Position numbers and translations under genes: made by a program. A DNA stretch of 42,273 nt from a virus: IMG/VR virus record IMGVR_UViG_3300045988_002998, one strand, 5' to 3'. The number at the start of each line of letters is the position of its first letter. Position 1 is the stretch's first letter. This document shows, one piece after another, positions 1,366 to 32,155 of this stretch. The notes under the pieces are model-generated. The model searched no databases, was not told where the DNA came from, and worked only from the letters and a program-made list of their open reading frames with translations.

Positions 1366-3648
1366 ATGGCAGATGGGAAAATCGTTGTGCAGGCGGAAGT
1401 TGATGCAAAAAAAGCACAACGGGAGCTTGATAAACTTACGGCAAGAATCGACAAGCTGGAAACCGATTTGAAAAAGAGCAGTGGCGAGCAAAGCGGGATC
1501 AAGGCACAGCTTGACGCGGCAAAGGAATCCGCAAAACAGGCAGAAACTGCGTTGAAATCGTTGCGCGCTGAATCCGAGCGACTGCGGCAGGTCACATCCG
1601 GCGAGGTGGCTGCATCGCCTGATGCGTATATTTCTGCATACAGTCGGCAATCCGAAGTCGCTGCACAGATTAAGGAACAGGAAGCGCTTCTGAAAGAGCA
1701 AGACAAGATCGTTGAGAGCTTGGACGGCAAGTACGCAAAAATTACGGACAAGGTAATGGAGCAGACCTCCGCGCTGGACGCGGCGAAGACACGCGCAGGA
1801 GAGCTTACGCAAGAGATTACAAATGCAAGCGGCGCGTCCGAACGAATGGAGCTTGCCGCAAAAAAAGTTTCCGACAGCATGAACACGTTCAGCAAGCGTG
1901 TTTCCGGGCTTTTTAAGCGGGTCCTTGTATTCTCTCTGATTACTAGAGCGCTGCAAAGCCTGCGGACATGGCTCGGGAAAACAATCATGCAGAACGAGGA
2001 GGCGCGTGCAGCGGTTGCGCGGCTTAAGGCGGCGTTTTTGACGCTGGCTCAGCCGATTCTTCAAGTCGTGATTCCCGTTTTCGTGAAGCTTGTGGACATT
2101 CTGACGCAGGTTGTTACAGCTATCGCAAAGTTCTTCGGAATGCTGTCCGGCAAAAGCTGGGGCGCGCAGGTCGCAGCGGCAAAAGGGCTGAATGCGGAAA
2201 AAGAAGCAATCGAGGGGGTAGGCTCCGCAGCTGAAGACGCCAGCAAGAGCATGGCGAGCTTCGACGAGATCAACCAGATTACCAGCAATCAGGCATCTGG
2301 AGGCGGTGGCGGCGCAGGCGGGGCGGCGTCTACGGATATCGCGCCGGATTTCTCAAACCTCGACATGGCGGAGGATAAACTGCACGATATTCTCGGCCTA
2401 GTAGGTGCGATTGCAGCCGGGCTGCTCGCTTGGAAAATTGCGAGCTTGTTCACGAACGACCTGAGCAAGATTTGGGGTATCGCCCTTGCTGTTGCCGGTG
2501 CGTTTGCGCTTGTATACTTCTGGCTGGATGCTTGGAATAATGGGATTGATTTACAAAACTTCCTCGGGATGCTGGCAGGTCTTGCCGCGCTTGCAGTTGG
2601 GCTTGCAATCGCCTTCGGACCAATCGCAGCAGGAATTGCGCTTGTTGTAGGCGGTCTTGCCATGCTGGTTGTCGGTATCAAAGACGTTATCGAAAACGGC
2701 TTTAATTTGGTGAATACGCTTACGATCATCGCAGGGCTGCTTGCCGCTGGTATCGGAATTTCGCTTCTGACGGGCAGCTGGATTCCACTCCTGATTGCGG
2801 GATTTGTTGCCGCTCTGGTTGCACTTGTTTCCTTTACCGGACATGGCGAAGAACTAATCGAAGGCCTGAAAAATATCATAGACGGATTCGGGAAATTCTT
2901 CAAGGGTGTGTTTACGGGAGACTTAAAGCTTGCAGCAGAAGGCGCGAAACAAATTTGGGAAGGGCTTAAGCAGACGTGGAATGCCATCATAAACTCCATC
3001 AAATATGCATGGGATATGTTCATTGCATGGTTACAATCAAAAAGCCCCATGCTCGCGGCGATTTTCCAGACATACGGAAACTTTATATCCGGCCTCTTCA
3101 ACAGTATAAAGCAGTGGCTAAGCGGAATCATCGAGTTTATCAGCGGCGTTTTTACCGGAGACTGGACAAAGGCGTGGGAAGGCGTAAAGGATATATTTAA
3201 GGGAATCTGGAATGGAATCATTACCGCTGTTGAATATGCGATAAACTTTATCATCAACGGTATAAACCTCCTAATCTCCGCGCTGAATACCATTCATTTC
3301 GAGGTCCCTGATTGGGTTCCTCTAATTGGCGGTAGTTCTTTCGGAATTAGCATTCCCCTAGTGAGCAACGTTGCGCTGCCTCGTCTCGCGCAGGGCGCAG
3401 TCATTCCCCCGAACCGCGAATTTCTCGCCGTTCTCGGTGACCAGAAGAGCGGGACGAATATTGAGACGCCGCTGGCAACGATGGTGCAGGCCTTTAAGCA
3501 GGCCATGAACGATACCGGAGGCATGGGCGGCAGGCAGATCACGGTTGTTATGCAGCTCGACCACAGAGAACTTGGCCGCGCGGTGTATAACCTTAACAAC
3601 GAGGAAACACAGCGCGTCGGCGTAAAGCTTGCGGGGGTGAAGGCATGA
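1366..3648 (+). CDS. Tape measure protein
   Basis: 760 aa, the largest ORF. N-terminal coiled coil (KKAQRELDKLTARIDKLETDLKK), long Gly/Ala/Leu/Ile-rich hydrophobic core. Position between chaperones and baseplate genes. Confidence 0.9.
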   Translation: MADGKIVVQAEVDAKKAQRELDKLTARIDKLETDLKKSSGEQSGIKAQLDAAKESAKQAETALKSLRAESERLRQVTSGEVAASPDAYISAYSRQSEVAAQIKEQEALLKEQDKIVESLDGKYAKITDKVMEQTSALDAAKTRAGELTQEITNASGASERMELAAKKVSDSMNTFSKRVSGLFKRVLVFSLITRALQSLRTWLGKTIMQNEEARAAVARLKAAFLTLAQPILQVVIPVFVKLVDILTQVVTAIAKFFGMLSGKSWGAQVAAAKGLNAEKEAIEGVGSAAEDASKSMASFDEINQITSNQASGGGGGAGGAASTDIAPDFSNLDMAEDKLHDILGLVGAIAAGLLAWKIASLFTNDLSKIWGIALAVAGAFALVYFWLDAWNNGIDLQNFLGMLAGLAALAVGLAIAFGPIAAGIALVVGGLAMLVVGIKDVIENGFNLVNTLTIIAGLLAAGIGISLLTGSWIPLLIAGFVAALVALVSFTGHGEELIEGLKNIIDGFGKFFKGVFTGDLKLAAEGAKQIWEGLKQTWNAIINSIKYAWDMFIAWLQSKSPMLAAIFQTYGNFISGLFNSIKQWLSGIIEFISGVFTGDWTKAWEGVKDIFKGIWNGIITAVEYAINFIINGINLLISALNTIHFEVPDWVPLIGGSSFGISIPLVSNVALPRLAQGAVIPPNREFLAVLGDQKSGTNIETPLATMVQAFKQAMNDTGGMGGRQITVVMQLDHRELGRAVYNLNNEETQRVGVKLAGVKA

Positions 3649-4037
3649 CAAGCATTTTGAGCCTTGACGGCAAGGAGTATCCGAATCTGCATGTTGTGAG
3701 CCTAAAGCGTTCGTTTGCCGTCCTCGACGGCGACAACGCAGGCCGCGTTATGACTGGCGCAATGACCCGTGACATCATCGGCACGTACTACAATTACAGC
3801 ATGGAGATCGATCCAGTATCGTCAGATCTGGCCGAGTATGACGAGTTTTACGAAGCCATTTCCGCTCCGGTAGACAGCCATGTACTGACCGTGCCATACG
3901 CGCAGGGAACCGCGACCTTTGACGCATACGTCGCAAACGGCGAGGACGAGCTTGTATCTAAGCATGGTAGCCGCAATGATTGGCAGAACCTCGCGATTAA
4001 TTTTGTCGCCATGAAGCCCAAGAGGACGCCAGTATGA
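3645..4037 (+). CDS. Putative distal tail protein (short, Dit-like)
   Basis: 130 aa; ATGA overlap with the tape measure stop; position only. Confidence 0.4.
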   Translation: MTSILSLDGKEYPNLHVVSLKRSFAVLDGDNAGRVMTGAMTRDIIGTYYNYSMEIDPVSSDLAEYDEFYEAISAPVDSHVLTVPYAQGTATFDAYVANGEDELVSKHGSRNDWQNLAINFVAMKPKRTPV

Positions 4038-5497
4038 GTGTAAAAGTTGTTTACGAGGACGTCGCAGTCGGCGCAGCTGACGCCGCGACCGTTGCGAGCA
4101 GCGACGCAAATGCATTTTCCATCATCCAAGATCTGCCGCACGGAACAAACCAGCTGTTAATCGAAACGAACGAGCTGAACCAGTGGATATTGGACGGCTC
4201 CCGGAAGATCCGCACGGCGGAGACTGCGGCGTTCTGGTCGGCGGAGCAGAGCAAGGCGGACTGCACCTTCGATACAAACCCGACGATTACTGTCACGCTG
4301 GACGGTGTATTCGCGTCCTCCGGCATCTTCTTTAACTTCGACGGCGGAGCAGGCGATTATTGCAGTGAGCTGACGCTCACGTGGTATAACGGTAATACGG
4401 TTGCGGCGACGCAGCAGTTCACGCCGGACGCGCAGAAATACTTCTGTGCAAAGCCTGTATCGGCATATAGCAAGCTGGTAATTGAGATTACGAAGACAAG
4501 TTTGCCGTACCGGTACGCGAAGATTCGCCAGATCTTTTTTGGCATCGTTCGCGAGTTTGAACGGGCGGATCTGCGAAGCGTCAGTGTGACGGAGGGTATC
4601 AGCGTGATCTCGGACGACGTTGAAATCAACACGCTTGATTTCACGCTAGACGATTCCGATGATATCGAATTTATTTTCCAAGAGAAGCAGCCAGTAAGTG
4701 CCTATGACGGAAGCAATCTGATCGGCGTGTTTTACATCAAGAGTTCGTCCCGGTCGAGCGCTCGCCTGTACGACGTTTCGTGCCATGATGCGCTCGGCGT
4801 CCTCGACGACGAGCCGTTTTCCGCTGCAATCTACAGCGGCAAGAACGCAAAGGATCTGATCACAAGCATTCTCGGCGGGCACTTTTTGCTCGATATGGAC
4901 GAGCGCCTGCAGGCCGAGACCGTCACAGGCTATATTCCGGACTGCACCTCTCGCGAAGCCTTGCAGCAGATCGCGTTTGCGCTCTGTGCAACTGTAGATA
5001 CAAGCGGCAGCCGTGGGATCTGCGTGCGTAAGTTGCCTACGGATACGGCAACAGAGATCCCACTTGACCGGCTCTATACGGGCGGAAGTGTAGATACCTC
5101 CGCGATTGTGACAGAGGTGCGCATCACGGCGCACAGCTATTCCACGTCTGGCAGTGGCGACAGCGTGACTGTTGGCGGCAAGACTTACTACCACACGACA
5201 GCAGTCACGGCAAAAACCAATCCGGACGTCACCACCAGCACAAAACCGAACGTCATTGAGGTCAAGGACGCGACGCTGGTAAACCCCAGCAACGTCGCCA
5301 CCGTGGCGCAGCACGTCTACGACTATTACATGCGCCGCCAGACGCACAGCGTGAAGATTGTTATGAAAGGCGAAGTTCCGGGCGATTACGTCGAGACCAC
5401 AACGCCGTGGGGGACGAAGATCACCGGCACGATCACCAGCATGAACATCCGATTGAGCGGGATTGCAGCAGCAGATTCCGAAATCGTAGGCGTATAA
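4034..5497 (+). CDS. Tail-associated / baseplate hub protein (Tal-like)
   Basis: 487 aa; translationally coupled (ATGA) to the upstream gene; position after TMP/Dit. Confidence 0.5.
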   Translation: MSVKVVYEDVAVGAADAATVASSDANAFSIIQDLPHGTNQLLIETNELNQWILDGSRKIRTAETAAFWSAEQSKADCTFDTNPTITVTLDGVFASSGIFFNFDGGAGDYCSELTLTWYNGNTVAATQQFTPDAQKYFCAKPVSAYSKLVIEITKTSLPYRYAKIRQIFFGIVREFERADLRSVSVTEGISVISDDVEINTLDFTLDDSDDIEFIFQEKQPVSAYDGSNLIGVFYIKSSSRSSARLYDVSCHDALGVLDDEPFSAAIYSGKNAKDLITSILGGHFLLDMDERLQAETVTGYIPDCTSREALQQIAFALCATVDTSGSRGICVRKLPTDTATEIPLDRLYTGGSVDTSAIVTEVRITAHSYSTSGSGDSVTVGGKTYYHTTAVTAKTNPDVTTSTKPNVIEVKDATLVNPSNVATVAQHVYDYYMRRQTHSVKIVMKGEVPGDYVETTTPWGTKITGTITSMNIRLSGIAAADSEIVGV

Positions 5498-5508
5498 AGG
5501 AGAAACAA

Positions 5509-7392
5509 GTGTTTACAGTTTTATGTAAAAAAGCGTGCGCGGAAACCGGATGCCACAGGCCGCTGCTGACAGCAGGCATGGCAAATGCGGAAACAATTGA
5601 ATTTAATTTCAGCGCCGACTGGGACACCCTCACCAAAACCGCCGTCTTTACCGACGGCAAAGTCACAGTCGACGTCTTACAGTCGCGCTGGCTCACGGGG
5701 AATACCGTCAACATCCCCGCCGAAGTCCTCGCTACGGCCGGCCGGAGTGTCCGCGTCGGCGTCTACGGCGCGAACGCGGACGGGCTGATATTGCCGACAG
5801 TGTGGGTAACGCTCGGCAAAGTCATGCCGGCGGCAGAGCCGTCCGGAGATCCGGGGGCAGACCCGACGCTGCCGATCTGGGCGCAGCTGCAAAACCAGAT
5901 CGGCGATCTGGACGATCTCACCACCAAAGCCAAAAACAATCTCGTCGCCGCGATCAACGAAGCGGCGAAAACCGGCAGCGGCGGCGCTGGCTCCATCGAT
6001 CTGCGCACCGCAGACGGCTACATCCAGTATTCCAACGACGGCGGCGCGACGTGGGAAAACCTGATCGCCCTCGCTGACCTCAAAGGCGAGAAGGGCGACA
6101 CCGGCGCAACTGGCCCGCAGGGGCAGCAGGGGCCAGCGGGGAAGACGCCGGTCAAGGGGACGGACTATTTTACGGAAGCCGACAAGCAGGAGATCGCGGA
6201 AGACGCGGCTGCGATGGTCGATCTGAGCGGGAAGCAGGACAAGATCAAGGCGAGCGGCCTGCTGAAGGGCGACGGCGCGGGCGGTGTCGAGACAGCGATG
6301 CCCGGCACGGATTATCTGATGGAAGCACCCGTCACGTCTGTCAACGGCGCGACCGGCGCAGTGAAAGGCACATTTTATGTGACAGTGACGCAAGGACACA
6401 ATGCTAGCGTAACCGCCGACAAAACGGCTGAGGAAGTGTATGCAGCCTATGTGGCAGGGTATGCGGTGTATGCAATTGTAAAATTCGCAGGAGCTATAGT
6501 ACCATACACACTTCCACTTCTGGCTGCGGCAAGTGTTTCCGGGACGGTAGTGCTCGGATTTGCAACGGTTGGATCAAGCAATGAGAATGACAACCCACAG
6601 TTTTTGATCGTGCTATACAACGGGGCCGCTTGGTCGGCATGGATCGACACGCTGGCAAGAAGCAGGGATATCCCAAAGATTCCGACGGAACTCAAAAATC
6701 CCTATTCACTCGTCATCAAAATCGGGAACGAGATGACGTCCTACGATGGAAGCGCGGCGAAAACAGTGGAAATCCCGGAGGGCGGCGGTACGGACGAATC
6801 GCTCGGTATTACCGGCGCTTCGGCTGGGAAAATCCCAAAAATCAAGGCGGTTGATGCGGCCGGAAAGCCAACGCAGTGGGAGGCAACGGCACTTCCAGAT
6901 GAAGCGTTTATTGTACACTTCACACTAGAGCGTCCACTCGTAGGGAACCCCACTATTACATCAGACAGAACACTAGAAGAGGTTACTGCCGCGATAGCGG
7001 CCAAAAAACAAGTCATAGCATTATTAGACGAAAACAATACAATAATTCAACTTTACAGCATTGCCAGTTCTATTAACTACCTGTATTTTTACACCATAAA
7101 AAAACAGGGAGCTGTAGTCGGAATAGGATGGCAGATTGATATTGACATGGAGGGTGGAAAAACCTCTACATTAACGACTATGGCCCCTTGGAATTTTATA
7201 GGATACAATGGCGTATCAGGTTCCAATCAAATCTTTGGCACAGGAGATACTGGTGGTTATGAATTTAAGCAACACATTCTGTTTGATAATCTGCCAGAAG
7301 TCACTACCTCCGACAACGGCAAATTCATGCGTGTGGTCAACGGCGCATGGGCGGTGGAAACGGTCGAGAATGCGAATGGAGGTAGCTTCTGA
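5509..7392 (+). CDS. Tail fibre protein with collagen-like stretch
   Basis: The track ORF opens at 5407, but AAGGAG (5498..5503) sits 5 nt before GTG 5509, right after the upstream stop. Contains GEKGDTGATGPQGQQGPAGKT. Confidence 0.65.
   Translation: MFTVLCKKACAETGCHRPLLTAGMANAETIEFNFSADWDTLTKTAVFTDGKVTVDVLQSRWLTGNTVNIPAEVLATAGRSVRVGVYGANADGLILPTVWVTLGKVMPAAEPSGDPGADPTLPIWAQLQNQIGDLDDLTTKAKNNLVAAINEAAKTGSGGAGSIDLRTADGYIQYSNDGGATWENLIALADLKGEKGDTGATGPQGQQGPAGKTPVKGTDYFTEADKQEIAEDAAAMVDLSGKQDKIKASGLLKGDGAGGVETAMPGTDYLMEAPVTSVNGATGAVKGTFYVTVTQGHNASVTADKTAEEVYAAYVAGYAVYAIVKFAGAIVPYTLPLLAAASVSGTVVLGFATVGSSNENDNPQFLIVLYNGAAWSAWIDTLARSRDIPKIPTELKNPYSLVIKIGNEMTSYDGSAAKTVEIPEGGGTDESLGITGASAGKIPKIKAVDAAGKPTQWEATALPDEAFIVHFTLERPLVGNPTITSDRTLEEVTAAIAAKKQVIALLDENNTIIQLYSIASSINYLYFYTIKKQGAVVGIGWQIDIDMEGGKTSTLTTMAPWNFIGYNGVSGSNQIFGTGDTGGYEFKQHILFDNLPEVTTSDNGKFMRVVNGAWAVETVENANGGSF
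6085..6147 (+). repeat. Collagen-like Gly-X-Y x7 coding repeat inside the fibre gene
   Basis: ggc gag aag ggc gac acc ggc gca act ggc ccg cag ggg cag cag ggg cca gcg ggg aag acg, read in frame. Confidence 0.85.
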
Positions 7393-9323
7393 TGGCTGAA
7401 TATCTGACAAACACGGCTGACCTGACGGCGGTTGCCGACGCGATCCGCGCGAAGGGCGGCACGGATGCGCAGCTGGTGTATCCGTCCGGGTTTGTGTCGG
7501 CCATTCAGGCAATCGAGACTGATGCTGTGGAAGCCTTGGAATGGCACCAATGCCCAGAGCTGGTGCGGAACTACCTCGCAAATGTGGTGTACGATCCTGC
7601 TGATTACAGCACATCGCAGATCGCATCCTATGCACCTGCGATGGCAGTTGTGAGCAATTACAAGCCCATCGGGCAGGAGGCGGGCGGTGTGACGCACTAC
7701 AACGAGGAGCCGTCCGCCCTCACGCCCTTTGCCGGAACGGACGCGGCGGGAACGCTCAAGCCGCTGGATGCGCTGCGGTGGATTCGCACGCGGAACAATT
7801 CCGCAGAAGCGTGGAATGTGCGCGATCTGGGAGGCTGGGCCTGCGATGGCGGAACAGTAAAATACGGGCTGCTGATTCGAGGCGGGCGTATCGCCGCTGC
7901 AGATCGGAATGTTCTAGTAGGCGAGCTAGGCGTGCAGCATGAGATCGATCTCAGAGGCAAAGAGGGCCGCGATCCGTCCGACGGTGACGTTGCAACAGAA
8001 TCCCCGCTTGGCAGCGATGTGTGGTTTACGATTGCTGATAAAGCAGCGTCCTACGCACTGGCGCCGGTTGCAACGTGGCAGCTCTATCTTCGCTGCGTGA
8101 TCGACGCAGTGACACACCGGGATCCGGTGTATTTTCATTGCACTGCAGGAGCTGATCGCACAGGCACACTTGCATGTGTGCTGGAAGGGATACTCGGCAT
8201 GAGCCAGAGCGATATCGATAAGGACTATGAGCTTACTACATTTTATTCCGGTTCGGGAACGGATGCACTCGCGCGGCGGAGAAATGAACCAGAGTGGACT
8301 GGACTTATCAATGCCATTAAGGCCGTTTCCGGCGAAACGTTCCGTGACAAATGCGTTCACTTCGCAGTTGGCGCATGCGGAATGACAATGGCGGACATCA
8401 ACGCCTACCGAGCGGCTATGACAAACGGAACGCCCGAGACGCTGCACTGGTATCAGACGATCACCAAAAATCTCACAGGATGCACGATAAGCAACGCCGC
8501 GTCCAAGGTGGATTACGGCGAGGCGTACACCGCGACACTCACACCGGAAAACGGAAAGACGCTGACCTCCGTTGTGATAAAAATGGGCGGCGTGGACATT
8601 ACATCCACGGCTTATTCGGCCGGCAGCGGTGCAATCAACATTGCCAAGGTAACGGGGGCAATTACGATCACTGCGGCGGCATCTGCACTGTCTGTGACTT
8701 ACACCATCACGCGGAATCTCACCAATTGCGCATCGTCCAACACGGCGAATACCATTGCCGAGGGTGCGGCCTACATCACGACGCTCTCGCCGACCGGTAC
8801 ATATAAAAAGCTCGGCGCGATCACTGTTACGATGGGCGGTACGGACATCTCCGCTTCGGCGGTTTCCGGCAGCACGATCACAATTGCCAACGTAACGGGT
8901 AACATTGTGATTACCTGCGCGGCGACGATCACGAACATCATCGATACAGTCGGAATTTCCGAAAATACGCGCTTGAGTGCAGCGAGTGGTGCCAATAAAG
9001 CGCAGACGGGGCATGCGGCTATCGGTGCGAACATGGACGCATCGAGCCTGATTCACCTGCACGCGGGAGATACGCTCCGCATCAAGGGTGTAAGCCTCCC
9101 CGCTGCAAATGACGGGACAAGTGTGGCAGTGAGGTACAGTGCAACGGCAACGTTTTTATCCGCGGGCTACATGCACAACGGGTATACGTGGAGTGAACTC
9201 AATTTTACAAGCAGCGGAGATATCGTCACGGTAACGTCAAATGCTGAACAGTACATCCGTTTGTCGCCGATCTGCACGGATGCGTCGGCGGTAATTGCGA
9301 CGATCAATGAGGAGATCGGCTGA
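7392..9323 (+). CDS. Tail fibre / receptor-binding protein with internal PTP-like (CX5R) phosphatase domain and two Ig-like repeats
   Basis: 643 aa. Fibre-type N-terminus (TADLTAVADAIRAKGGTDA). NVRDLGGW...EIDLRG and HCTAGADRTGT (8136..8165) match the Y_phosphatase3/PTP signature. Two ~77-aa repeats (approx 8457..8690 and 8700..8926). ATGA-type coupling on both sides. Confidence 0.65.
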   Translation: MAEYLTNTADLTAVADAIRAKGGTDAQLVYPSGFVSAIQAIETDAVEALEWHQCPELVRNYLANVVYDPADYSTSQIASYAPAMAVVSNYKPIGQEAGGVTHYNEEPSALTPFAGTDAAGTLKPLDALRWIRTRNNSAEAWNVRDLGGWACDGGTVKYGLLIRGGRIAAADRNVLVGELGVQHEIDLRGKEGRDPSDGDVATESPLGSDVWFTIADKAASYALAPVATWQLYLRCVIDAVTHRDPVYFHCTAGADRTGTLACVLEGILGMSQSDIDKDYELTTFYSGSGTDALARRRNEPEWTGLINAIKAVSGETFRDKCVHFAVGACGMTMADINAYRAAMTNGTPETLHWYQTITKNLTGCTISNAASKVDYGEAYTATLTPENGKTLTSVVIKMGGVDITSTAYSAGSGAINIAKVTGAITITAAASALSVTYTITRNLTNCASSNTANTIAEGAAYITTLSPTGTYKKLGAITVTMGGTDISASAVSGSTITIANVTGNIVITCAATITNIIDTVGISENTRLSAASGANKAQTGHAAIGANMDASSLIHLHAGDTLRIKGVSLPAANDGTSVAVRYSATATFLSAGYMHNGYTWSELNFTSSGDIVTVTSNAEQYIRLSPICTDASAVIATINEEIG

Positions 9324-9817
9324 TGGACACCAAGACCATCATCGTCACACTCGTCACTGACCGGACGAAGGCGGATGTGGAGCGCGTCAAGGCACTGGCC
9401 GGGAAGGGCTTCGCCGCAATGACGTCAGACGAGCAGGCGGAATGGCTGGCCGGGATGAAGGGCGCGTACAATGCGATCGATTTGAACCGCGTTGGCACGG
9501 CTCTGAACTATTTGGCTGGGCGTCTCGCGCCGCTTTGCGGGAAGAATATCCAGTGGTCAGCTAAGACGGATTGGAGCATGACGGACGTTATAACAGCTCC
9601 ACAGGCCGCTGTATACCGAAAGCAGATACAGGATGTGAGAGACGCGCTGACGTACCCGGCCGGAACACCTGCCGTACCGGAGATCGACCGGATGACGTAC
9701 ACTGGGGCAAACGATATCGAGCGCATTTTGGCGTTGTGCGAAACGCTGATCGATAACATTATTAAGGCGTTGCGGTACACCGGCGCGGCGGAATGCGCCG
9801 CAGGAGGACTGATATGA
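9323..9817 (+). CDS. Tail-fibre-associated protein, function unknown
   Basis: 164 aa; start overlaps the upstream stop; embedded between fibre genes. Confidence 0.35.
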   Translation: MDTKTIIVTLVTDRTKADVERVKALAGKGFAAMTSDEQAEWLAGMKGAYNAIDLNRVGTALNYLAGRLAPLCGKNIQWSAKTDWSMTDVITAPQAAVYRKQIQDVRDALTYPAGTPAVPEIDRMTYTGANDIERILALCETLIDNIIKALRYTGAAECAAGGLI

Positions 9818-11280
9818 AAGACAGACAACCGACACAGGTGCTGGCCAACGGCGCGATCCGATACGGCATTTACGGCGCCGACGGAACGCTCGACCACTAC
9901 GAATACATGAAGCGCGAGGACGAGCCTACAATCGAAGGTACGCCGCTCAATAAGGCAAATCTTTTATCCGACGTGACGGAGAATAAGATCTGGAACAACA
10001 AGGAGAAACCGGCTGATCCGACCGTCAACGATGCGCTGTACGAGTTATCTAAAGGCACGGCGCGTATCGGAGACATCTCCATGACTGCCCGCGGGGATCG
10101 CTCAACTTCGTGGCTCCCCTGCGATGGACGGGCAATTTCAAACGTCGAGTATCCGGATCTGTACAACGTCCTGCGCACGGACGTCGATGCGGGTGATTGG
10201 GATGAAATCGAAGTCACTGGCCTGAGCGGCACGCATCCATCCTTGTCGTATGTAAACGGACACTGGTTCTGCGTTGCGCAAAAAAGCGACAAAAGCCTAA
10301 ACATTGCAGTTTCAAGCGATTTCTCCTCGTTCGCAATAAGATCCATGTCCGTTGCGACGACATGGAATAATTCGCTTGGCTCTTATTCCCTGCTCAACAT
10401 TCTCGGCACAACACCCGTACATTATTATGCCGGTAAGTATCTGTTTGCTGCTTTTTATCTATGCTCAAAAGGCAACGGCTACGGATATGCGACGTTTATC
10501 GTATACTCGGACACACCGGCAGGAACGTGGCGCCTTTCTCCAGTCCAAGTACATACAGGACATGACAGGACGAAAGAGCACTATATCTCCGATCTGCTCA
10601 TCTACGATGGGATTTACTACATACCGGAGCCACGCCAAGATGGGATCCCAGACACCGGCACTTATTATTGGGCAACGGATATTCAAGGCCAGTGGACGAG
10701 GAAGCCGACCGCCTATGGCTTTGAGGCAAGAAACACACAGTCAAAAAACTATGGAGCTATTTACTCGGATGTTGGCAACTATGAGGTTTATAAATTCCAG
10801 GGGCTAAACGACGGGTATGTAGCAAGCTCTACCTATCCGGGCGGAACAATTGGATCTGCGATAAATCTTGCAGCAGCCGGGGACACAGTTATTTTAATCT
10901 GCGAAAAGGGTGCTGCGTATTCGTTGGATGGCGGAGAGACTTTTACTTCGGCAGCTACATTTGGGAGCGAATTTCCGACGGAACTAACGCACAATATAGC
11001 CATTTACGATGGAAATATCTGTGCCACTTTTCTAAAAAACGGAACAGAAAAATTTATTGCAGTAACAAGTGCCCCTGATTTTGCGTTCGCGATCAAGCCG
11101 GTCAACTATGAAATCGGATGGTTCGCGAATAATGGCAATACAGTTTCCGCAATTGTTGATAACTCCGAGGACGTACAAGTTAAACTCCTCACAAGAGATT
11201 TTTCGTACTCTGCAAAACGTATCCCCAAAATCACCCCCGATGGCCGCAGTTATGCTTACATCAAAGCGCTGGAGGAATAA
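9814..11280 (+). CDS. Receptor-binding / tail fibre protein with tail-collar-like motif
   Basis: AGGAGGA precedes ATG 9814 (ATGA overlap with the upstream stop; track ORF starts earlier at 9793). The motif WLPCDGRAISNVEYPDLYNVL resembles the phage tail collar domain. Confidence 0.55.
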   Translation: MKDRQPTQVLANGAIRYGIYGADGTLDHYEYMKREDEPTIEGTPLNKANLLSDVTENKIWNNKEKPADPTVNDALYELSKGTARIGDISMTARGDRSTSWLPCDGRAISNVEYPDLYNVLRTDVDAGDWDEIEVTGLSGTHPSLSYVNGHWFCVAQKSDKSLNIAVSSDFSSFAIRSMSVATTWNNSLGSYSLLNILGTTPVHYYAGKYLFAAFYLCSKGNGYGYATFIVYSDTPAGTWRLSPVQVHTGHDRTKEHYISDLLIYDGIYYIPEPRQDGIPDTGTYYWATDIQGQWTRKPTAYGFEARNTQSKNYGAIYSDVGNYEVYKFQGLNDGYVASSTYPGGTIGSAINLAAAGDTVILICEKGAAYSLDGGETFTSAATFGSEFPTELTHNIAIYDGNICATFLKNGTEKFIAVTSAPDFAFAIKPVNYEIGWFANNGNTVSAIVDNSEDVQVKLLTRDFSYSAKRIPKITPDGRSYAYIKALEE

Positions 11281-11283
11281 GTC

Positions 11284-11712
11284 ATGCAGGACAGACACGG
11301 CACGAATGATCTTGCAAACGGCGCTGTGCGGTACGGCGTGTACGATGCGGACGGGAGCCTGCTGCGGTACGAGTGGATCCGGCCCGAGGATGAGCCGCTG
11401 GAAGCAGGTACGCCGTTGCTCAAAGCAAACCTCCTGACGGACGCCACCGCCGAGAAAGTCTGGCCTGCGGGCGACGCGCCCGCTGATCCGAAGATCGACG
11501 GAGCACTCGCCAAGCTTACCACGCCGCGCGCCCGCCCCGGCGACGTCGTAACGACTGCCCGATATCTCGATGAGACATGGCACGTCTGCGACGGTTCGAC
11601 GTTTTCCCAGACTGATTACCCGGCGCTGTACGCCGTCCTCGGCAGCACGACGCTGCCGGATATCAGCTATTCAAGCGACACCACGACATACATCAAAATG
11701 GTGGACGATTAG
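11284..11712 (+). CDS. Short paralogue of the N-terminal ~130 aa of 9814..11280 (tail-collar-like)
   Basis: 142 aa. Alignable by eye: LANGAVRYGVYDADGSLLRYEWIRPEDEPLEAGTPLLKANLL / WHVCDGSTFSQTDYPALYAVL versus LANGAIRYGIYGADGTLDHYEYMKREDEPTIEGTPLNKANLL / WLPCDGRAISNVEYPDLYNVL. Confidence 0.55.
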   Translation: MQDRHGTNDLANGAVRYGVYDADGSLLRYEWIRPEDEPLEAGTPLLKANLLTDATAEKVWPAGDAPADPKIDGALAKLTTPRARPGDVVTTARYLDETWHVCDGSTFSQTDYPALYAVLGSTTLPDISYSSDTTTYIKMVDD

Positions 11713-12342: not shown

Positions 12343-12651
12343 ATGGACTACACACAGATCATCTCGGCAGTGATCGCGCTCATCGGCGCGCTCGTTTCGG
12401 CGTTTTTGATCCCGTGGATCAAAACCAAGATTGACGCCGACAAGCTGCAGACCATCCGGGCATACGTCGAAATCGGCGTAAAGGCTGCGGAGCAGCTCTA
12501 TGACGCGACGGACGGCCCGGCGAAAAAAGCGTATGTCCTCAGCTTTTTGGCCGAAAAAGGGATCACATTTGATAGCGAGGTTGTTGACAAACTGATCGAG
12601 GCCACCGTGCTGCAGCTGCACCACGAGCTGTACGGGAGCGAGCGGGTATGA
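12343..12651 (+). CDS. Holin-like protein (single N-terminal TM; LL-H-type architecture by recall)
   Basis: 102 aa; GAAAGGAG RBS; TM IISAVIALIGALVSAFLIPWI followed by an amphipathic region; immediately upstream of and overlapping the endolysin start. Confidence 0.55.
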   Translation: MDYTQIISAVIALIGALVSAFLIPWIKTKIDADKLQTIRAYVEIGVKAAEQLYDATDGPAKKAYVLSFLAEKGITFDSEVVDKLIEATVLQLHHELYGSERV

Positions 12652-13349
12652 GTTACGTTATGAGAGCGTCCGAGCTTGTAAAAAAGCATATCGACGTTGC
12701 AAAGAATTACAAAACCGTGTACATGTGGGGCTGCTTCGGCTCTCCCGTCACGAACGGCATTATCACGGAAAAGGCGAACCAGTACCCGGACTGGTACGAC
12801 GCCGCAAAGCAGGCCAGATTCCGCGGCCTGATCGGGAAGGGCTACTTTGGCTTTGACTGTGTGAATCTCACAAAGGGGATCCTGTGGGGATGGAACGGCA
12901 ACAAAAATGCCTACCACGGCGGCGCACGCTACGCCGGCAACGCCGTCCCGGACGTCTCCGCAGACGGCATGATCGCGAAGTGTCAGGACGTATCCGCGTC
13001 CGGCTGGGACAAGCTGATTCCCGGCGAGGGCCTCTGGATGCCCGGCCACTGGGGACTGTACATCGGAGACGGTCTCGCGGTCGAGTGTACGCCGATCTGG
13101 GACAACGGCGTGCAGATCACCTGTGTCGGCAACATCGGCCTCAAGGGCGGCTACAACAGCCGTGTGTGGAAGAAGCACGGCAAGCTCCCGTGGGTGGACT
13201 ACGACACGGAAACCGTCGACAAGGCCGTCGAGGACGCCAAGAAGACCATCAAGACGAAGGCCGGACTTGCGGACAACACGATTAAATATCTGGCAGATTA
13301 CAAGTACGGCGATGACCTGCTGAAAAAATTGGCTGCGGCTATGAAGTAA
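12648..13349 (+). CDS. Endolysin, NlpC/P60-like cysteine peptidase
   Basis: 233 aa; FGFDCVNLTKG (Cys) and PGHWGLYIGDGLAVECT (His) arrangement typical of NlpC/P60; follows the holin. Confidence 0.7.
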   Translation: MSYVMRASELVKKHIDVAKNYKTVYMWGCFGSPVTNGIITEKANQYPDWYDAAKQARFRGLIGKGYFGFDCVNLTKGILWGWNGNKNAYHGGARYAGNAVPDVSADGMIAKCQDVSASGWDKLIPGEGLWMPGHWGLYIGDGLAVECTPIWDNGVQITCVGNIGLKGGYNSRVWKKHGKLPWVDYDTETVDKAVEDAKKTIKTKAGLADNTIKYLADYKYGDDLLKKLAAAMK

Positions 13350-16015: not shown

Positions 16016-16220
16016 TCCGTTTATGGCCGCGCTGGGCGGCGGGCAGGGTCCTATGGGCAACTTTGCCCAGATGGTGCAGCAGTTTAACCAGTTCAAATCG
16101 AATTTCAAGGGCGACCCAAAAGCCGAGGTCGAAAAGCTCTTGCAGAGTGGTAGGCTAAACCAGCAGCAGCTCAATCAGCTACAGCAGATGGCGAAGCAGT
16201 TTCAAAGCCTGATGCAGTAA
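16008..16220 (+). CDS. Small Q-rich protein (island gene F)
   Basis: 70 aa; overlaps the upstream stop; LNQQQLNQLQQMAKQFQSLMQ. Confidence 0.45.
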   Translation: MSNPFMAALGGGQGPMGNFAQMVQQFNQFKSNFKGDPKAEVEKLLQSGRLNQQQLNQLQQMAKQFQSLMQ

Positions 16221-16232
16221 TCATCAACATAA

Positions 16233-16257
16233 ATCAACATCGTGGCCACGATTTGAT
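16233..16257 (+). promoter_or_regulatory. Intercistronic hairpin (14-bp perfect palindrome core)
   Basis: atcgtggccacgat (16239..16252), extended by 5 bp with one bulge; followed by an A/T-rich tract. Confidence 0.3.
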
Positions 16258-16286
16258 GAATAAAAATTTTTCAAAGGAGTGATACT

Positions 16287-17063
16287 ATGTCTCTTTCTGA
16301 CGGCGGCGTTCAGGCCACTATGCCTGTTGCGCCAACCGGCATGATGAACAGCGGCTTTGGCGGCTTCGGCGGCGATGGCGCGTGGTGGATCATCATTCTT
16401 TTCCTGTTTGTTTTCTGCGGATGGGGAAACAACGGCTGGGGAAACAACGGCAACAGCGGTGCTGCTGACAATTACGTCCTTGCAAGCGATTTTGCCACTC
16501 TTCAGCGCCAGATCGACAGCGCAGCATCGACGATCGAACGTAAAGGCGACATTACGCAGCAGGGCATCTGCGATGGCTTCTACGCCATGAACACTACGCT
16601 GCTGAACGGCTTTGCGGGCGCCAATCAGAACATGAACAGCGGTTTCCAGAATGCCGAGCTTTCCCGCTGCAACCAGCAGGCAGCTCTCATGCAGCAGCTC
16701 AACGCCATGCAGATGCAGGCCGCAGATTGCTGCTGCGAAAACCGTGCAGCTATCGCCCAGGTGCGCTACGACATGGCGACGCAGGCGTGCGACACGCGCA
16801 ACACCGTGCAGAACGCCACGCGCGACATCATTGACGCGAACAACCAGAACAGCCGCGCCATCCTCGACTTCCTGACGCAAAGCAAGCTGTCCGACCTCCA
16901 GACTGAGAATCAGAATCTGAAGCTGGCGGCATCTCAGTCCGCGCAGAACAACTATCTGATCTCGCAGCTGCGTCCGTGTCCTTCGCCTGCCTACATTACT
17001 TGTAACCCGTGGGCAGGCAGCGGTTACGGCGGCTGTGGCTGCAATCAGGGTTGTGGCTGCTGA
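16287..17063 (+). CDS. Gly-rich/TM N-terminus, Q/N-rich coiled region, Cys-rich C-terminus protein (island gene G)
   Basis: 258 aa; AAAGGAG RBS; GFGGFGGDGAWWIIILFLFVFCGWGNNGWGNNG; ADCCCENR; C-terminus GSGYGGCGCNQGCGC. Confidence 0.55.
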   Translation: MSLSDGGVQATMPVAPTGMMNSGFGGFGGDGAWWIIILFLFVFCGWGNNGWGNNGNSGAADNYVLASDFATLQRQIDSAASTIERKGDITQQGICDGFYAMNTTLLNGFAGANQNMNSGFQNAELSRCNQQAALMQQLNAMQMQAADCCCENRAAIAQVRYDMATQACDTRNTVQNATRDIIDANNQNSRAILDFLTQSKLSDLQTENQNLKLAASQSAQNNYLISQLRPCPSPAYITCNPWAGSGYGGCGCNQGCGC

Positions 17064-31537: not shown

Positions 31538-32155
31538 ATGAACACTAAAATTTTGAAAATCAAGGGCGACTGGCAGGAGGTCGTGGACACCTGCCGCGCC
31601 ACTTCCGGAAAAGGGCCGCTCGGGCATGAGCCAAGCAAGGAGTTCAAGCGGCGGATCCTGATCGCTGAGCACTCGCCCATCCGCCGGATTTCGGTATCGT
31701 GGATATGGGAGGGGGTCAAAAGCTGGATCGCTACGCACTGGAGCCGCCATAAGTGGGAGTGCTTTATCTCTACGCAGAGAACAGACCGAACCGGAACGCC
31801 GAGGGACAAGCTCCAGCAGGACGCGCCGGTGATCTTCGAGGGAGAAGCGAACGTACAAGCCCTGATCGATTCCATGCGCAAGCGGTTATGCCGTCAGGCA
31901 GACCCGGAGACGCGCGCGTATGCCGAGGATTTCAAAGCGGCGCTGCATGAGATTCAGCCGGAGATCTCGGACGTGTTGGTGCCAAACTGCATTTACCGGT
32001 GCGGATGCCCGGAGATGCAGACCTGCGGGATGTATGAGAGCTGGTCCCGCCTTCGACCGGAAGTCATGAGTACCTACATCCAACACCGATACGACATCTA
32101 CAACAGTATGTTTTGGAAAGCGAGGGAAAAACGTGGGAACGATACTGGCGGTTGA
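31538..32155 (+). CDS. ThyX-like (flavin-dependent thymidylate synthase fold) protein, divergent
   Basis: AEHSPIRRISVSW...THWSRHKWECFISTQRTDR resembles the ThyX EH...RHR...SxR pattern, but reads RHK rather than RHR (recall). Confidence 0.4.
   Translation: MNTKILKIKGDWQEVVDTCRATSGKGPLGHEPSKEFKRRILIAEHSPIRRISVSWIWEGVKSWIATHWSRHKWECFISTQRTDRTGTPRDKLQQDAPVIFEGEANVQALIDSMRKRLCRQADPETRAYAEDFKAALHEIQPEISDVLVPNCIYRCGCPEMQTCGMYESWSRLRPEVMSTYIQHRYDIYNSMFWKAREKRGNDTGG

Follow-up and report, generated by a model that had tools for sequence, protein, structure and literature searches.

We analysed a stretch of 42,273 nucleotides from the IMG/VR virus record IMGVR_UViG_3300045988_002998 (the window, read on one strand, 5' to 3'), in which a gene at 7392..9323 on the plus strand encodes a 643-aa predicted fibre-tip protein with an embedded phosphatase domain of the protein tyrosine phosphatase (PTP) fold. 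A first-pass annotation, made by a model from the letters alone, had described the gene as a tail-fibre protein with a CX5R phosphatase domain. The open reading frame (ORF) is present exactly as claimed there, and all of the quoted motifs were found, namely NVRDLGG (residues 142 to 148), LLIRGG (160 to 165), EIDLRG (184 to 189), HCTAGADRTGT (249 to 259), and DKDYELT (276 to 282). The start of the P-loop at 8136 was also right, but the span 8136..8165 given for it leaves out the last of its 11 residues. The gene, its domains, and its neighbours are listed in Table 1.

Table 1. The fibre-tip gene, the parts of its product, and the neighbouring genes (positions are those of the window)
Feature	Position	Strand	Basis or remark
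Tape measure	1366..3648	+	PHROG, E 3e-65
130-aa gene	3645..4037	+	Start of tail-tip block; with the next gene, phrog_1194 and phrog_13879
487-aa distal tail gene	4034..5497	+	Start of tail-tip block
Collagen-like fibre shaft gene, ~627 aa	5509..7392	+	Weak Pfam Collagen/BNR and PHROG tail-fibre matches
Predicted fibre-tip protein gene with embedded PTP-fold phosphatase domain	7392..9323	+	643 aa
N-terminal adaptor, residues 1-45, helical, putative docking module	7392..7526	+	Recurrence in other tip proteins
Clade-specific extension with EWHQCPE motif, residues 46-130	7527..7781	+	Conservation
PF13350/PTP-fold catalytic domain, residues 131-350	7782..8441	+	Pfam, PDB profile search, Foldseek
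P-loop HCTAGADRTGT: Cys250 (8139-8141), Asp255, Arg256 (8157-8159)	8136..8168	+	Homologue conservation
Two tandem Ig-like repeats, residues 353-432 and 433-512	8448..8927	+	Repeat identity, model
C-terminal beta-sandwich, residues 513-643	8928..9320	+	Model
164-aa tail-module gene, phrog_18725, coupled to tip gene	9323..9817	+	PHROG, TGATG
Tail Collar gene	9793..11280	+	PF07484, PHROG tail-fibre/collar
Tail Collar gene, 142 aa	11284..11712	+	PF07484, PHROG tail-fibre/collar
Holin	12343..12651	+	PHROG, E 1.8e-29
Endolysin	12648..13349	+	PHROG, E 2.1e-13; ends structural block

Pfam assigns residues 139 to 313 to PF13350 (Y_phosphatase3) with 86.1 bits against a cutoff of 22.2 (E value, 4.7e-24), and the matches of the other PTP and dual-specificity phosphatase (DSP) models are weak, below threshold, and confined to the P-loop. 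In particular, the classical PTP model PF00102 reaches 14 bits against a cutoff of 20.9, on the P-loop only, and the DSPc threshold is not reached, with weak below-threshold matches to other DSP-type models. No GDPD domain was matched in Pfam or PHROGs. The protein itself has no match in PHROGs or NCBIfam, so that no curated phage family is available for guidance. In a search of PDB sequences, the family profile matched 8DHI with an E value of 5.5e-13. Furthermore, comparison with PDB by Foldseek retrieved the PTP of Clostridioides difficile (8DHJ/8DHI; E value, 6.9e-7) and PtpB of Mycobacterium tuberculosis (1YWF/2OZ5; E value, 4.6e-6), in addition to Pseudomonas aeruginosa TpbA, DUSP15/22, and yeast Siw14, all with a probability of 1.0; the target-normalised TM-scores of the matches, including 8dhj, 1ywf, 4r0s, the DUSPs, and Siw14, are 0.5 to 0.66. 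The profile match to 8DHI and the Foldseek matches thus agree with the PF13350-type CX5R domain of the first-pass annotation, and both Pfam and the AlphaFold2 model place the region in the PTP/Y_phosphatase3 superfamily.

In alignment A1, which contains 80 sequences with 37 to 95% identity to the query and served as input for the AlphaFold2 model, H249, G253, D255, R256, and T257 are invariant (80/80) and C250 is present in all sequences except one (79/80). Among the 149 representatives of the clade, clustered at 50% identity, the C..G.DR pattern is kept in 137; the others comprise six replacements of Arg by Lys, one of Asp by Glu, one of Cys by Gly, two of His by Asn, and two fragments. The P-loop is intact in 22 of the 23 homologous loci found in genomes, down to 32% overall identity, and PF13350 matches each of the 85 clade representatives that were scanned. 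To judge from these alignments, the catalytic residues are under purifying selection, and the domain is probably a catalytically competent phosphatase.

Three further cysteines are highly conserved in A1, i.e., C54 (7551-7553; 79/80), C151 (7842-7844; 80/80), and C262 (8175-8177; 80/80). It is possible to hypothesize that C262, one helix past the catalytic Cys, could act as a "backdoor" Cys for reversible protection from oxidation and that a disulfide between C54 and C151 could hold the extension and the catalytic domain together.

The Asp at position 6 of the P-loop has been shown experimentally to be the catalytic acid in MptpB, Lmo1800, and a Leishmania enzyme (PMC3091653), and their family has no WPD loop (Beresford et al. 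2010, PMC3091653). By alignment, D255 occupies this position in the tip protein and in every other sequence of A1. The motif HCXXGKDR defines the MptpB-like atypical lipid phosphatases (ALPs), in which the Lys at position 5 binds phosphoinositides (PMC3091653). Different from these ALPs, the tip protein has Ala at position 5, as do 132 of the clade's 146 P-loops, with Arg in six others and Lys in one; the protein is therefore, by its sequence, a PF13350 member that lacks the diagnostic motif HCXXGKDR[TA]G. A phosphoinositide substrate is less likely because the position-5 Lys is missing, that single case aside, from the P-loops of the clade. It follows that the analogy with PTP-like inositol-polyphosphatases drawn in the first-pass annotation is weaker than implied, since the P-loop Lys (HCxxGKDR) is absent.

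The C. difficile PTP (8DHI/8DHJ), MptpB (1YWF), and Lmo1800/Lmo1935 share with the phage protein the fold, the family, and the framework of NxRDLGG and HCxxGxDR[TA]G, as well as the catalytic Asp at position 6 and a DKDYE-type motif after the P-loop helix. However, in comparison with 8DHI, whose sequence starts at NxRDLGG, the phage clade has gained an extension of ~85 aa with the WHQCPE motif, and a segment of ~30 residues in 8DHI has no counterpart in the phage clade. Moreover, the known PF13350 enzymes are free proteins of ~250 to 300 aa, whereas here the domain sits in a multidomain virion or surface protein. On sequence grounds, a P-loop of the type HCxxGADRTG together with the WHQCPE extension defines an exported subclade of PF13350.

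The AlphaFold2 model of the whole protein (mean predicted local distance difference test score [pLDDT], 85) consists of a helical, low-confidence N terminus (residues 1 to 50), a partly ordered extension (50 to 130), the alpha/beta domain of the PTP fold (~131 to 345), and a C-terminal half in which two immunoglobulin-like (Ig-like) beta-sandwiches are followed by a C-terminal beta-sandwich. In the catalytic domain, block means of pLDDT range from 63 to 98, with most blocks above 85 and values of 93 to 98 around the active site (residues 221 to 280). In the extension, W51, H52, Q53, C54, and P55 each occur in 77 to 79 of the 80 sequences of A1; this is the most conserved segment of the distant set (65%), and it moves together with the catalytic domain as one unit of ~305 aa, including in giant GDSL fusions and lipoproteins.

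The two Ig-like repeats that had been recognized in the first-pass annotation were recovered as units of ~80 aa each, 47% identical to each other (E value, 1e-16) and modelled as beta-sandwiches with pLDDT above 90; the Big_12 model of Pfam matches them weakly, with 19 to 22 bits under a cutoff of 27. In the homologue at locus L017, an extra domain of ~170 aa lies between the PTP domain and the Ig-like repeats. The beta-rich character ascribed to the C terminus was likewise borne out, as its 131 residues, modelled alone, gave a beta-sandwich with a pLDDT of 94.6. This domain has no match in Pfam, and the comparison with PDB structures returned no significant match (best E value, 0.08), the likeness to CBM32, CBM6, and tailspikes being vague only. 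The C-terminal beta-sandwich is probably the tip that confers specificity or binding.

Divergence was computed for each domain by pairwise alignment, with the close clade and the distant set kept apart. The enzyme core shows 56 to 65% identity in the distant set and 86 to 88% in the close clade; in the distant set, identity is lowest at 30% for the N-terminal adaptor and 31% for the C-terminal beta-sandwich. In the close clade, the C-terminal domain is the most variable domain of the body (76%), with a hot spot at residues 581 to 620 (55 to 63%). A conserved enzyme core combined with a variable C-terminal tip is, as far as sequences can tell, a pattern typical of receptor-binding proteins (RBPs).

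The genomic position of the gene points in the same direction. To judge from its gene content, the window is an essentially complete genome of a temperate siphovirus, encoding terminase, portal, MuF-like minor head protein, major head protein, tape measure, holin, endolysin, and integrase, and the tip gene is placed between the tape measure and distal tail genes on one side and the lysis genes on the other. Its location within a fibre/RBP block of the tail module, as proposed in the first-pass annotation, agrees with the PHROG annotation of its neighbours. The translational coupling noted there was also found, at both ends of the gene: stop and start codons share one base in the TGATG overlaps at 7390-7394 (5' end) and 9321-9325 (3' end), and a GGAGG/GAGGAG Shine-Dalgarno sequence lies ~10 nt before each of them. 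For the upstream shaft gene, the probable start is the GTG at 5509, preceded by an AGGAGA Shine-Dalgarno sequence at 5498-5503; the program-made ORF list starts it at 5407.

The association of the PTP gene with a collagen-like fibre gene is found well beyond the window. The fibre gene precedes the PTP gene in loci L001, L003, L005, L007, L008, L016, and L027, and a fibre homologue lies directly upstream in 42 of 78 IMG/VR loci, with a DUF6273 gene intervening in 5 more. The whole tail module is common to L016 and L027, and several loci continue into holin and endolysin genes downstream. The last ~33 residues of the shaft (629 to 661 in the numbering of the ORF) are conserved beside the tip gene in L007, L024, L026, and L027. 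In addition, in the relatives P0296 and P0277, the core is fused to Phage_fiber_rpt.

A different arrangement occurs in L026 (8687-11926), L030, L031, L048, L063, and L024 (4760-7029), where the fibre and tip pair lies between the SPP1-type portal and MuF-like genes. The tip protein of L026 is 100% identical to P0004, which comes from a tail-module context, and its fibre gene is split into ORFs of 282 and 164 aa. The tail module of that lineage passes straight from the counterpart of the distal tail gene at 4034 to the counterpart of the gene at 9323, and the presence of the pair at the portal-MuF site, together with its absence from the tail module, suggests a mobile two-gene cassette that possibly provides a neck or head fibre. 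The gene at 9323 is not specific to PTP loci, as its relatives stand behind a DUF6273 tip gene in L025 and directly behind the distal tail gene in L026.

The N terminus of the tip protein had been described as fibre-type. Its attachment-like character is upheld, and it can be specified further as an adaptor of ~45 aa that is common to tip proteins of the DUF6273 and LRR_5 types. The adaptor is the sole segment of the tip protein that recurs in GenBank phage records (INPHARED), with 79 to 82% identity, where it heads a 342-aa protein with PKD and BspA-type LRR_5 domains and a 338-aa DUF6273 protein; the gene of the latter directly follows that of a 468-aa collagen-repeat fibre. A search of IMG/VR with the adaptor alignment found 390 stretches that encode it, and the best 80 of the adaptor ORFs include 12 of the PTP type, 55 of the DUF6273 type, at least 2 of the LRR_5 type, and a few with small bodies of unknown kind. 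In the large protein database, the 46-aa adaptor matched 31 short fragments only, of 35 to 81 aa. The DUF6273 and LRR_5 tip proteins thus share with the PTP type the adaptor (74 to 98% identity), the position behind a collagen-like fibre, and, in some cases, an Ig-like spacer; however, their bodies are binding modules of a non-enzymatic or unknown kind, and only the PTP type has a recognisable catalytic domain.

In L037 to L041 (8001-10864), a DUF6273 protein of ~340 aa with the adaptor is followed by a PTP protein with a different short N terminus (MKKIVTVDGEALTVEGEAVETDDVESIEWHQCPE...), and by comparison of the sequences these tandem tip genes show an adaptor swap at about residue 47. A seeming insertion of ~0.9 kb in the gene of these loci, for which an intron or a mobile element was considered, was rejected, as it is the separate adaptor-bearing DUF6273 gene upstream. 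The conserved end of the shaft and the adaptor fit a docking pair of shaft and tip, or at least a recombination joint. The position in the tail block, the coupling, and the modular build with a hypervariable tip are those expected of a fibre or RBP, and on this basis the PTP-bearing protein is very probably a virion fibre-tip protein.

Adaptor-only ORFs of 55 to 70 aa that end shortly after residue ~45 (e.g., ...AIQAIDVSSGGVTWYSPVN) occur in L140, L141, L142, and L145 (4001-4168), and adaptor-only proteins are represented by P0397 (6 contigs) and P0400 (23 contigs, up to 120 kb). Truncation at the joint of module swapping, frameshifts in the genes, or a short product made on purpose may account for them.

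The core clade has the character of an extracellular family. Its fusion partners in Pfam include SLH, Dockerin_1 (type-I dockerin), choline-binding repeats, and Big_2, and 11 of the 149 representatives carry Sec or lipoprotein signal peptides; WHQCP/WRQCP comes almost immediately after the lipobox in P0367, P0369, and P0382. P0315 (1,748 aa) and P0339 (1,764 aa, with a signal peptide) have a GDSL/SGNH esterase in the N-terminal part and the extension with the PTP core at the extreme C terminus, and thus, by domain content, combine two chemistries that modify surface polymers. P0366 (916 aa) has a prokaryotic N-terminal methylation (type IV pilin) motif ahead of the PTP core, and this arrangement suggests that a bacterium displays the core on a fibre resembling a pilus. 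Because of these exported fusion modules and signal or lipoprotein peptides, the clade appears to be extracellular in bacteria, which disfavours a role as an ejected or cytoplasmic effector. Of the two ideas put forward in the first-pass annotation, modification of surface polymers is favoured by these sequences over the ejected effector.

Relatives of the core (residues 46 to 352, ~305 aa) are numerous. A HMMER scan of 1.84 billion cluster representatives gave 6,923 matches with an E value of at most 1e-3, 2,316 with at most 1e-10, and 303 with at most 1e-30; a large protein database contained more than 3,700 matches, the top 120 being full length with 79 to 95% identity, and 177 viral contigs of IMG/VR, mostly of 20 to 50 kb, encode a relative. 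With 303 clusters at 50% identity (E value of at most 1e-30), 177 viral contigs in IMG/VR, and metagenomic proteins in the thousands, the family is large and can be regarded as common in the gut viromes of humans and ruminants. The 23 loci in reference genomes and metagenome-assembled genomes (MAGs), which include close and distant homologues, all belong to gut or rumen anaerobes, namely a Subdoligranulum variabile MAG (75% identity), Oscillospiraceae, Butyricicoccaceae, Ruminococcus, other Clostridia, and two Coriobacteriia.

Among 50,697 GenBank phage records, tblastn with the PTP core found no cultured, annotated phage; the matches were faecal contigs lacking annotation and short fragments, labelled "Listeria/Enterococcus phage" and ~26% identical, that resemble host genes of the lmo1800 type. 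The only relatives that the window has at the DNA level among GenBank phage records are contigs from human faeces, likewise without annotation. BFVD contains three proteins of ~600 aa from uncultured phages (82%, 27%, and 23% identity) under the automatic name "Tyrosine phosphatase family protein," and the nr entry P0068 bears the same name. In open-access text, where absence is not proof, we found no description of a phage tail, fibre, or RBP with a tyrosine phosphatase, PF13350, or phosphatase domain, and the word "phosphatase" is absent from two papers on virion- and tail-associated enzymes (PMC6116005, PMC10194240). The domain has thus already been flagged automatically in databases, and in the open-access text searched we found no paper that describes Cys-phosphatase chemistry on a virion.

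Phages are known to carry glycosidases, lyases, esterases, and peptidases on their tail fibres and spikes, along with a few phosphodiesterases. As cited in PMC6116005 and PMC10194240, the appendage protein gp12 of phi29 degrades wall teichoic acid, and GDPD tail proteins occur as a baseplate glycerophosphodiesterase in Lactobacillus phage Ld17 and in enterococcal phages. By analogy, the tip protein would likewise be a modular enzyme on the adsorption apparatus facing a host of the Gram-positive type. However, those virion enzymes are phosphodiesterases or depolymerases with a GDPD TIM barrel or a beta-helix and metal or acid-base chemistry, whereas the tip protein has a PTP fold with a Cys nucleophile, an expected monoesterase activity, and neither a GDPD nor a pectin-lyase domain. 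The glucan phosphatases laforin, SEX4, and LSF2 are CX5R (DSP) enzymes that carbohydrate-binding modules (CBMs) tether to phosphorylated polysaccharide. They may offer the best mechanistic analogy, in that a CX5R enzyme combined with beta-sandwich modules acts on phosphomonoesters of an insoluble polysaccharide; they are, however, eukaryotic, intracellular, and of the DSP type, and the tip protein reaches neither the DSPc threshold nor a CBM match, so that homology with them is at the level of the superfamily only.

The explanation that we consider the best overall, and on which our belief and doubt are about balanced, is that of a virion fibre-tip phosphatase acting on phosphorylated polymers of the host envelope. 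The tip protein would be the distal subunit of a side fibre in a temperate gut siphovirus, plugged by its adaptor of ~45 residues onto the C-terminal end of the upstream collagen-like fibre; we infer this docking from the conserved gene junction and the swapping of modules. Residues 46 to 350 would form an extracellular-type PF13350 phosphatase, with Cys250 as the presumed nucleophile, Asp255 as the general acid, and Arg256 as the phosphate clamp, and the variable beta-sandwich, perhaps with the Ig-like domains, would provide strain-specific binding. On the virion, the enzyme would meet the envelope of an Oscillospiraceae-type host, where phosphomonoesters of a wall or capsular glycopolymer would be bound and most likely hydrolysed through a thiophosphoryl-Cys intermediate, and the receptor layer would be processed during entry or the binding made reversible. 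The catalytic thiolate would stay reduced outside the cell in the strictly anoxic gut or rumen; such a thiolate appears workable on a virion because all of the hosts seem to be strict anaerobes of these habitats. That the substrate is a phosphorylated polymer of the host envelope remains a tentative though quite plausible proposal, and it is more conjectural still that adsorption requires, or is facilitated by, dephosphorylation of a wall or capsule sugar or polyol through a chemistry common to the exported bacterial clade.

Several observations weigh against this explanation. PTP-fold enzymes hydrolyse phosphomonoesters, and teichoic acids and most phosphoglycans are linked by phosphodiesters. 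With most wall phosphates being diesters, no abundant monoester substrate is known on these hosts. No WPD-like acid loop is conserved, D186 and D216 being variable in A1, and the general acid therefore rests on Asp255 alone. Natural variants occur with Cys replaced by Ser (P0083) or Gly (P0352) and with Arg replaced by Lys (L017 and the six representatives mentioned above), which suggests that catalysis is dispensable in some lineages. Since the fibre and tip pair lies between portal and MuF in some phages, attachment at the neck or head instead of the tail tip is possible. With no significant match for the C-terminal domain, the term CBM for it remains a guess. Finally, PHROGs reveal no clear tail module around the homologues that are most distant (L019, L021, and L022), and, from this context, these copies may be cellular genes.

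The variants also bear on the alternative that the PTP pocket grips a phosphate-bearing receptor in the manner of a lectin, with turnover irrelevant or selected against. The C250S form of P0083 and the Arg-to-Lys forms, which extend to exported lipoproteins, resemble substrate traps; the latter make up a subclade (HCGAGADKTG) comprising L017 (6887-9409), P0342, P0367, P0369, P0374, P0382, and P0388. Judged by their sequences, these active-site variants are probably catalytically impaired, binding-only forms. In sister phages the same adaptor carries the purely adhesive LRR_5 and DUF6273 modules, and the lack of a conserved WPD-type loop would also be in keeping with binding alone. However, ~92% of the representatives (137/149) and 79 to 80 of the 80 sequences of A1 retain Cys, Asp255, and Arg together, the P-loop Asp serves chemistry and not phosphate binding (PMC3091653), and a separate variable C-terminal domain already resembles a binding module. 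We regard pure binding as unlikely.

A phosphatase directed at the environment is less probable again. Here, the fibre-borne enzyme would act on the gut matrix, or would serve as a mere decoration whose Ig-like domains keep the particle in mucus, and its cellular relatives would be exoenzymes that scavenge phosphate or are directed at phytate, phospho-sugars, or mucin. The secreted, lipoprotein, and dockerin- or SLH-anchored forms of the cellular relatives are what nutrient scavengers would be expected to show, three to four tandem PTP domains are present in P0247, and the Ig-like domains and the location of the fibre-PTP pair beside portal and head genes in some phages would also suit this role. 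Nevertheless, the gene belongs to the tail-tip block and is coupled to fibre genes in the window and in most relatives, and the hypervariability of the C terminus fits the tracking of host strains; moreover, a benefit of such an exoenzyme for the phage is not obvious.

We know of no side-fibre tip protein that enters the cell, and this counts against the weakest alternative, which we hold to be very improbable, namely that the protein, free before assembly or ejected, dephosphorylates host BY-kinases or Ser/Thr/Tyr kinases of signalling or defence. The PF13350 members MptpB and Listeria Lmo1800 are protein or lipid phosphatases used as effectors (PMC3091653), and an ejected effector was named as an alternative in the first-pass annotation, but the core clade is extracellular in bacteria and is fused to Ig-like, beta-sandwich, and fibre-adaptor modules, and no kinase or phospho-signalling partner was found in the rest of the window.

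If the proposal of a fibre-tip phosphatase acting on the host envelope is true, a Cys-based enzyme of the PTP fold on a fibre would be a new chemistry for the interaction between phage and envelope. Such a receptor-dephosphorylating enzyme would represent a class not known for any virus, viable only under the anoxic conditions of the gut, and would point to an unrecognised phosphorylated receptor on Oscillospiraceae of the Subdoligranulum/Faecalibacterium type and on Ruminococcus, gut commensals that are abundant yet little studied. The exported PF13350 subclade was previously uncharacterised and differs from the virulence phosphatases of the MptpB type. In addition, the modularity of adaptor and tip may be a handle for host-range engineering, and a C250S form could trap the receptor substrate.

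Downstream of the tip gene, the two Collar-domain genes (9793..11712) are, by their domain content, additional fibres of the same adhesion device. Their N-terminal ~125 residues are clearly paralogous (MKDRQPTQVLANGAIRYGIYGADG... versus MQDRHGTNDLANGAVRYGVYDADG...), and the same pair is present in L027. Elsewhere in the window, the ORF at 32988-33491 matches the N-terminal domain of dATP/dGTP diphosphohydrolase (PF18909; E value, 3.3e-20), and a weak Thy1 (ThyX) match lies at 31538-32155; these matches may hint that the phage manipulates the nucleotide pool or modifies DNA.

Multiple copies of the PTP core were seen in a few relatives. On the contig of a Clostridia MAG from goat jejunum (L011), two cores (10001-11089 and 16043-16939) lie ~6 kb apart, with an endolysin-like gene after the first of them. 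Tandem PF13350 domains, three to four per polypeptide, occur in P0247 (990 aa) and P0260 (664 aa), and the P-loops of P0247 read HCAAGADRTG, HCAGGADRTG, and HCAGGADRTG.

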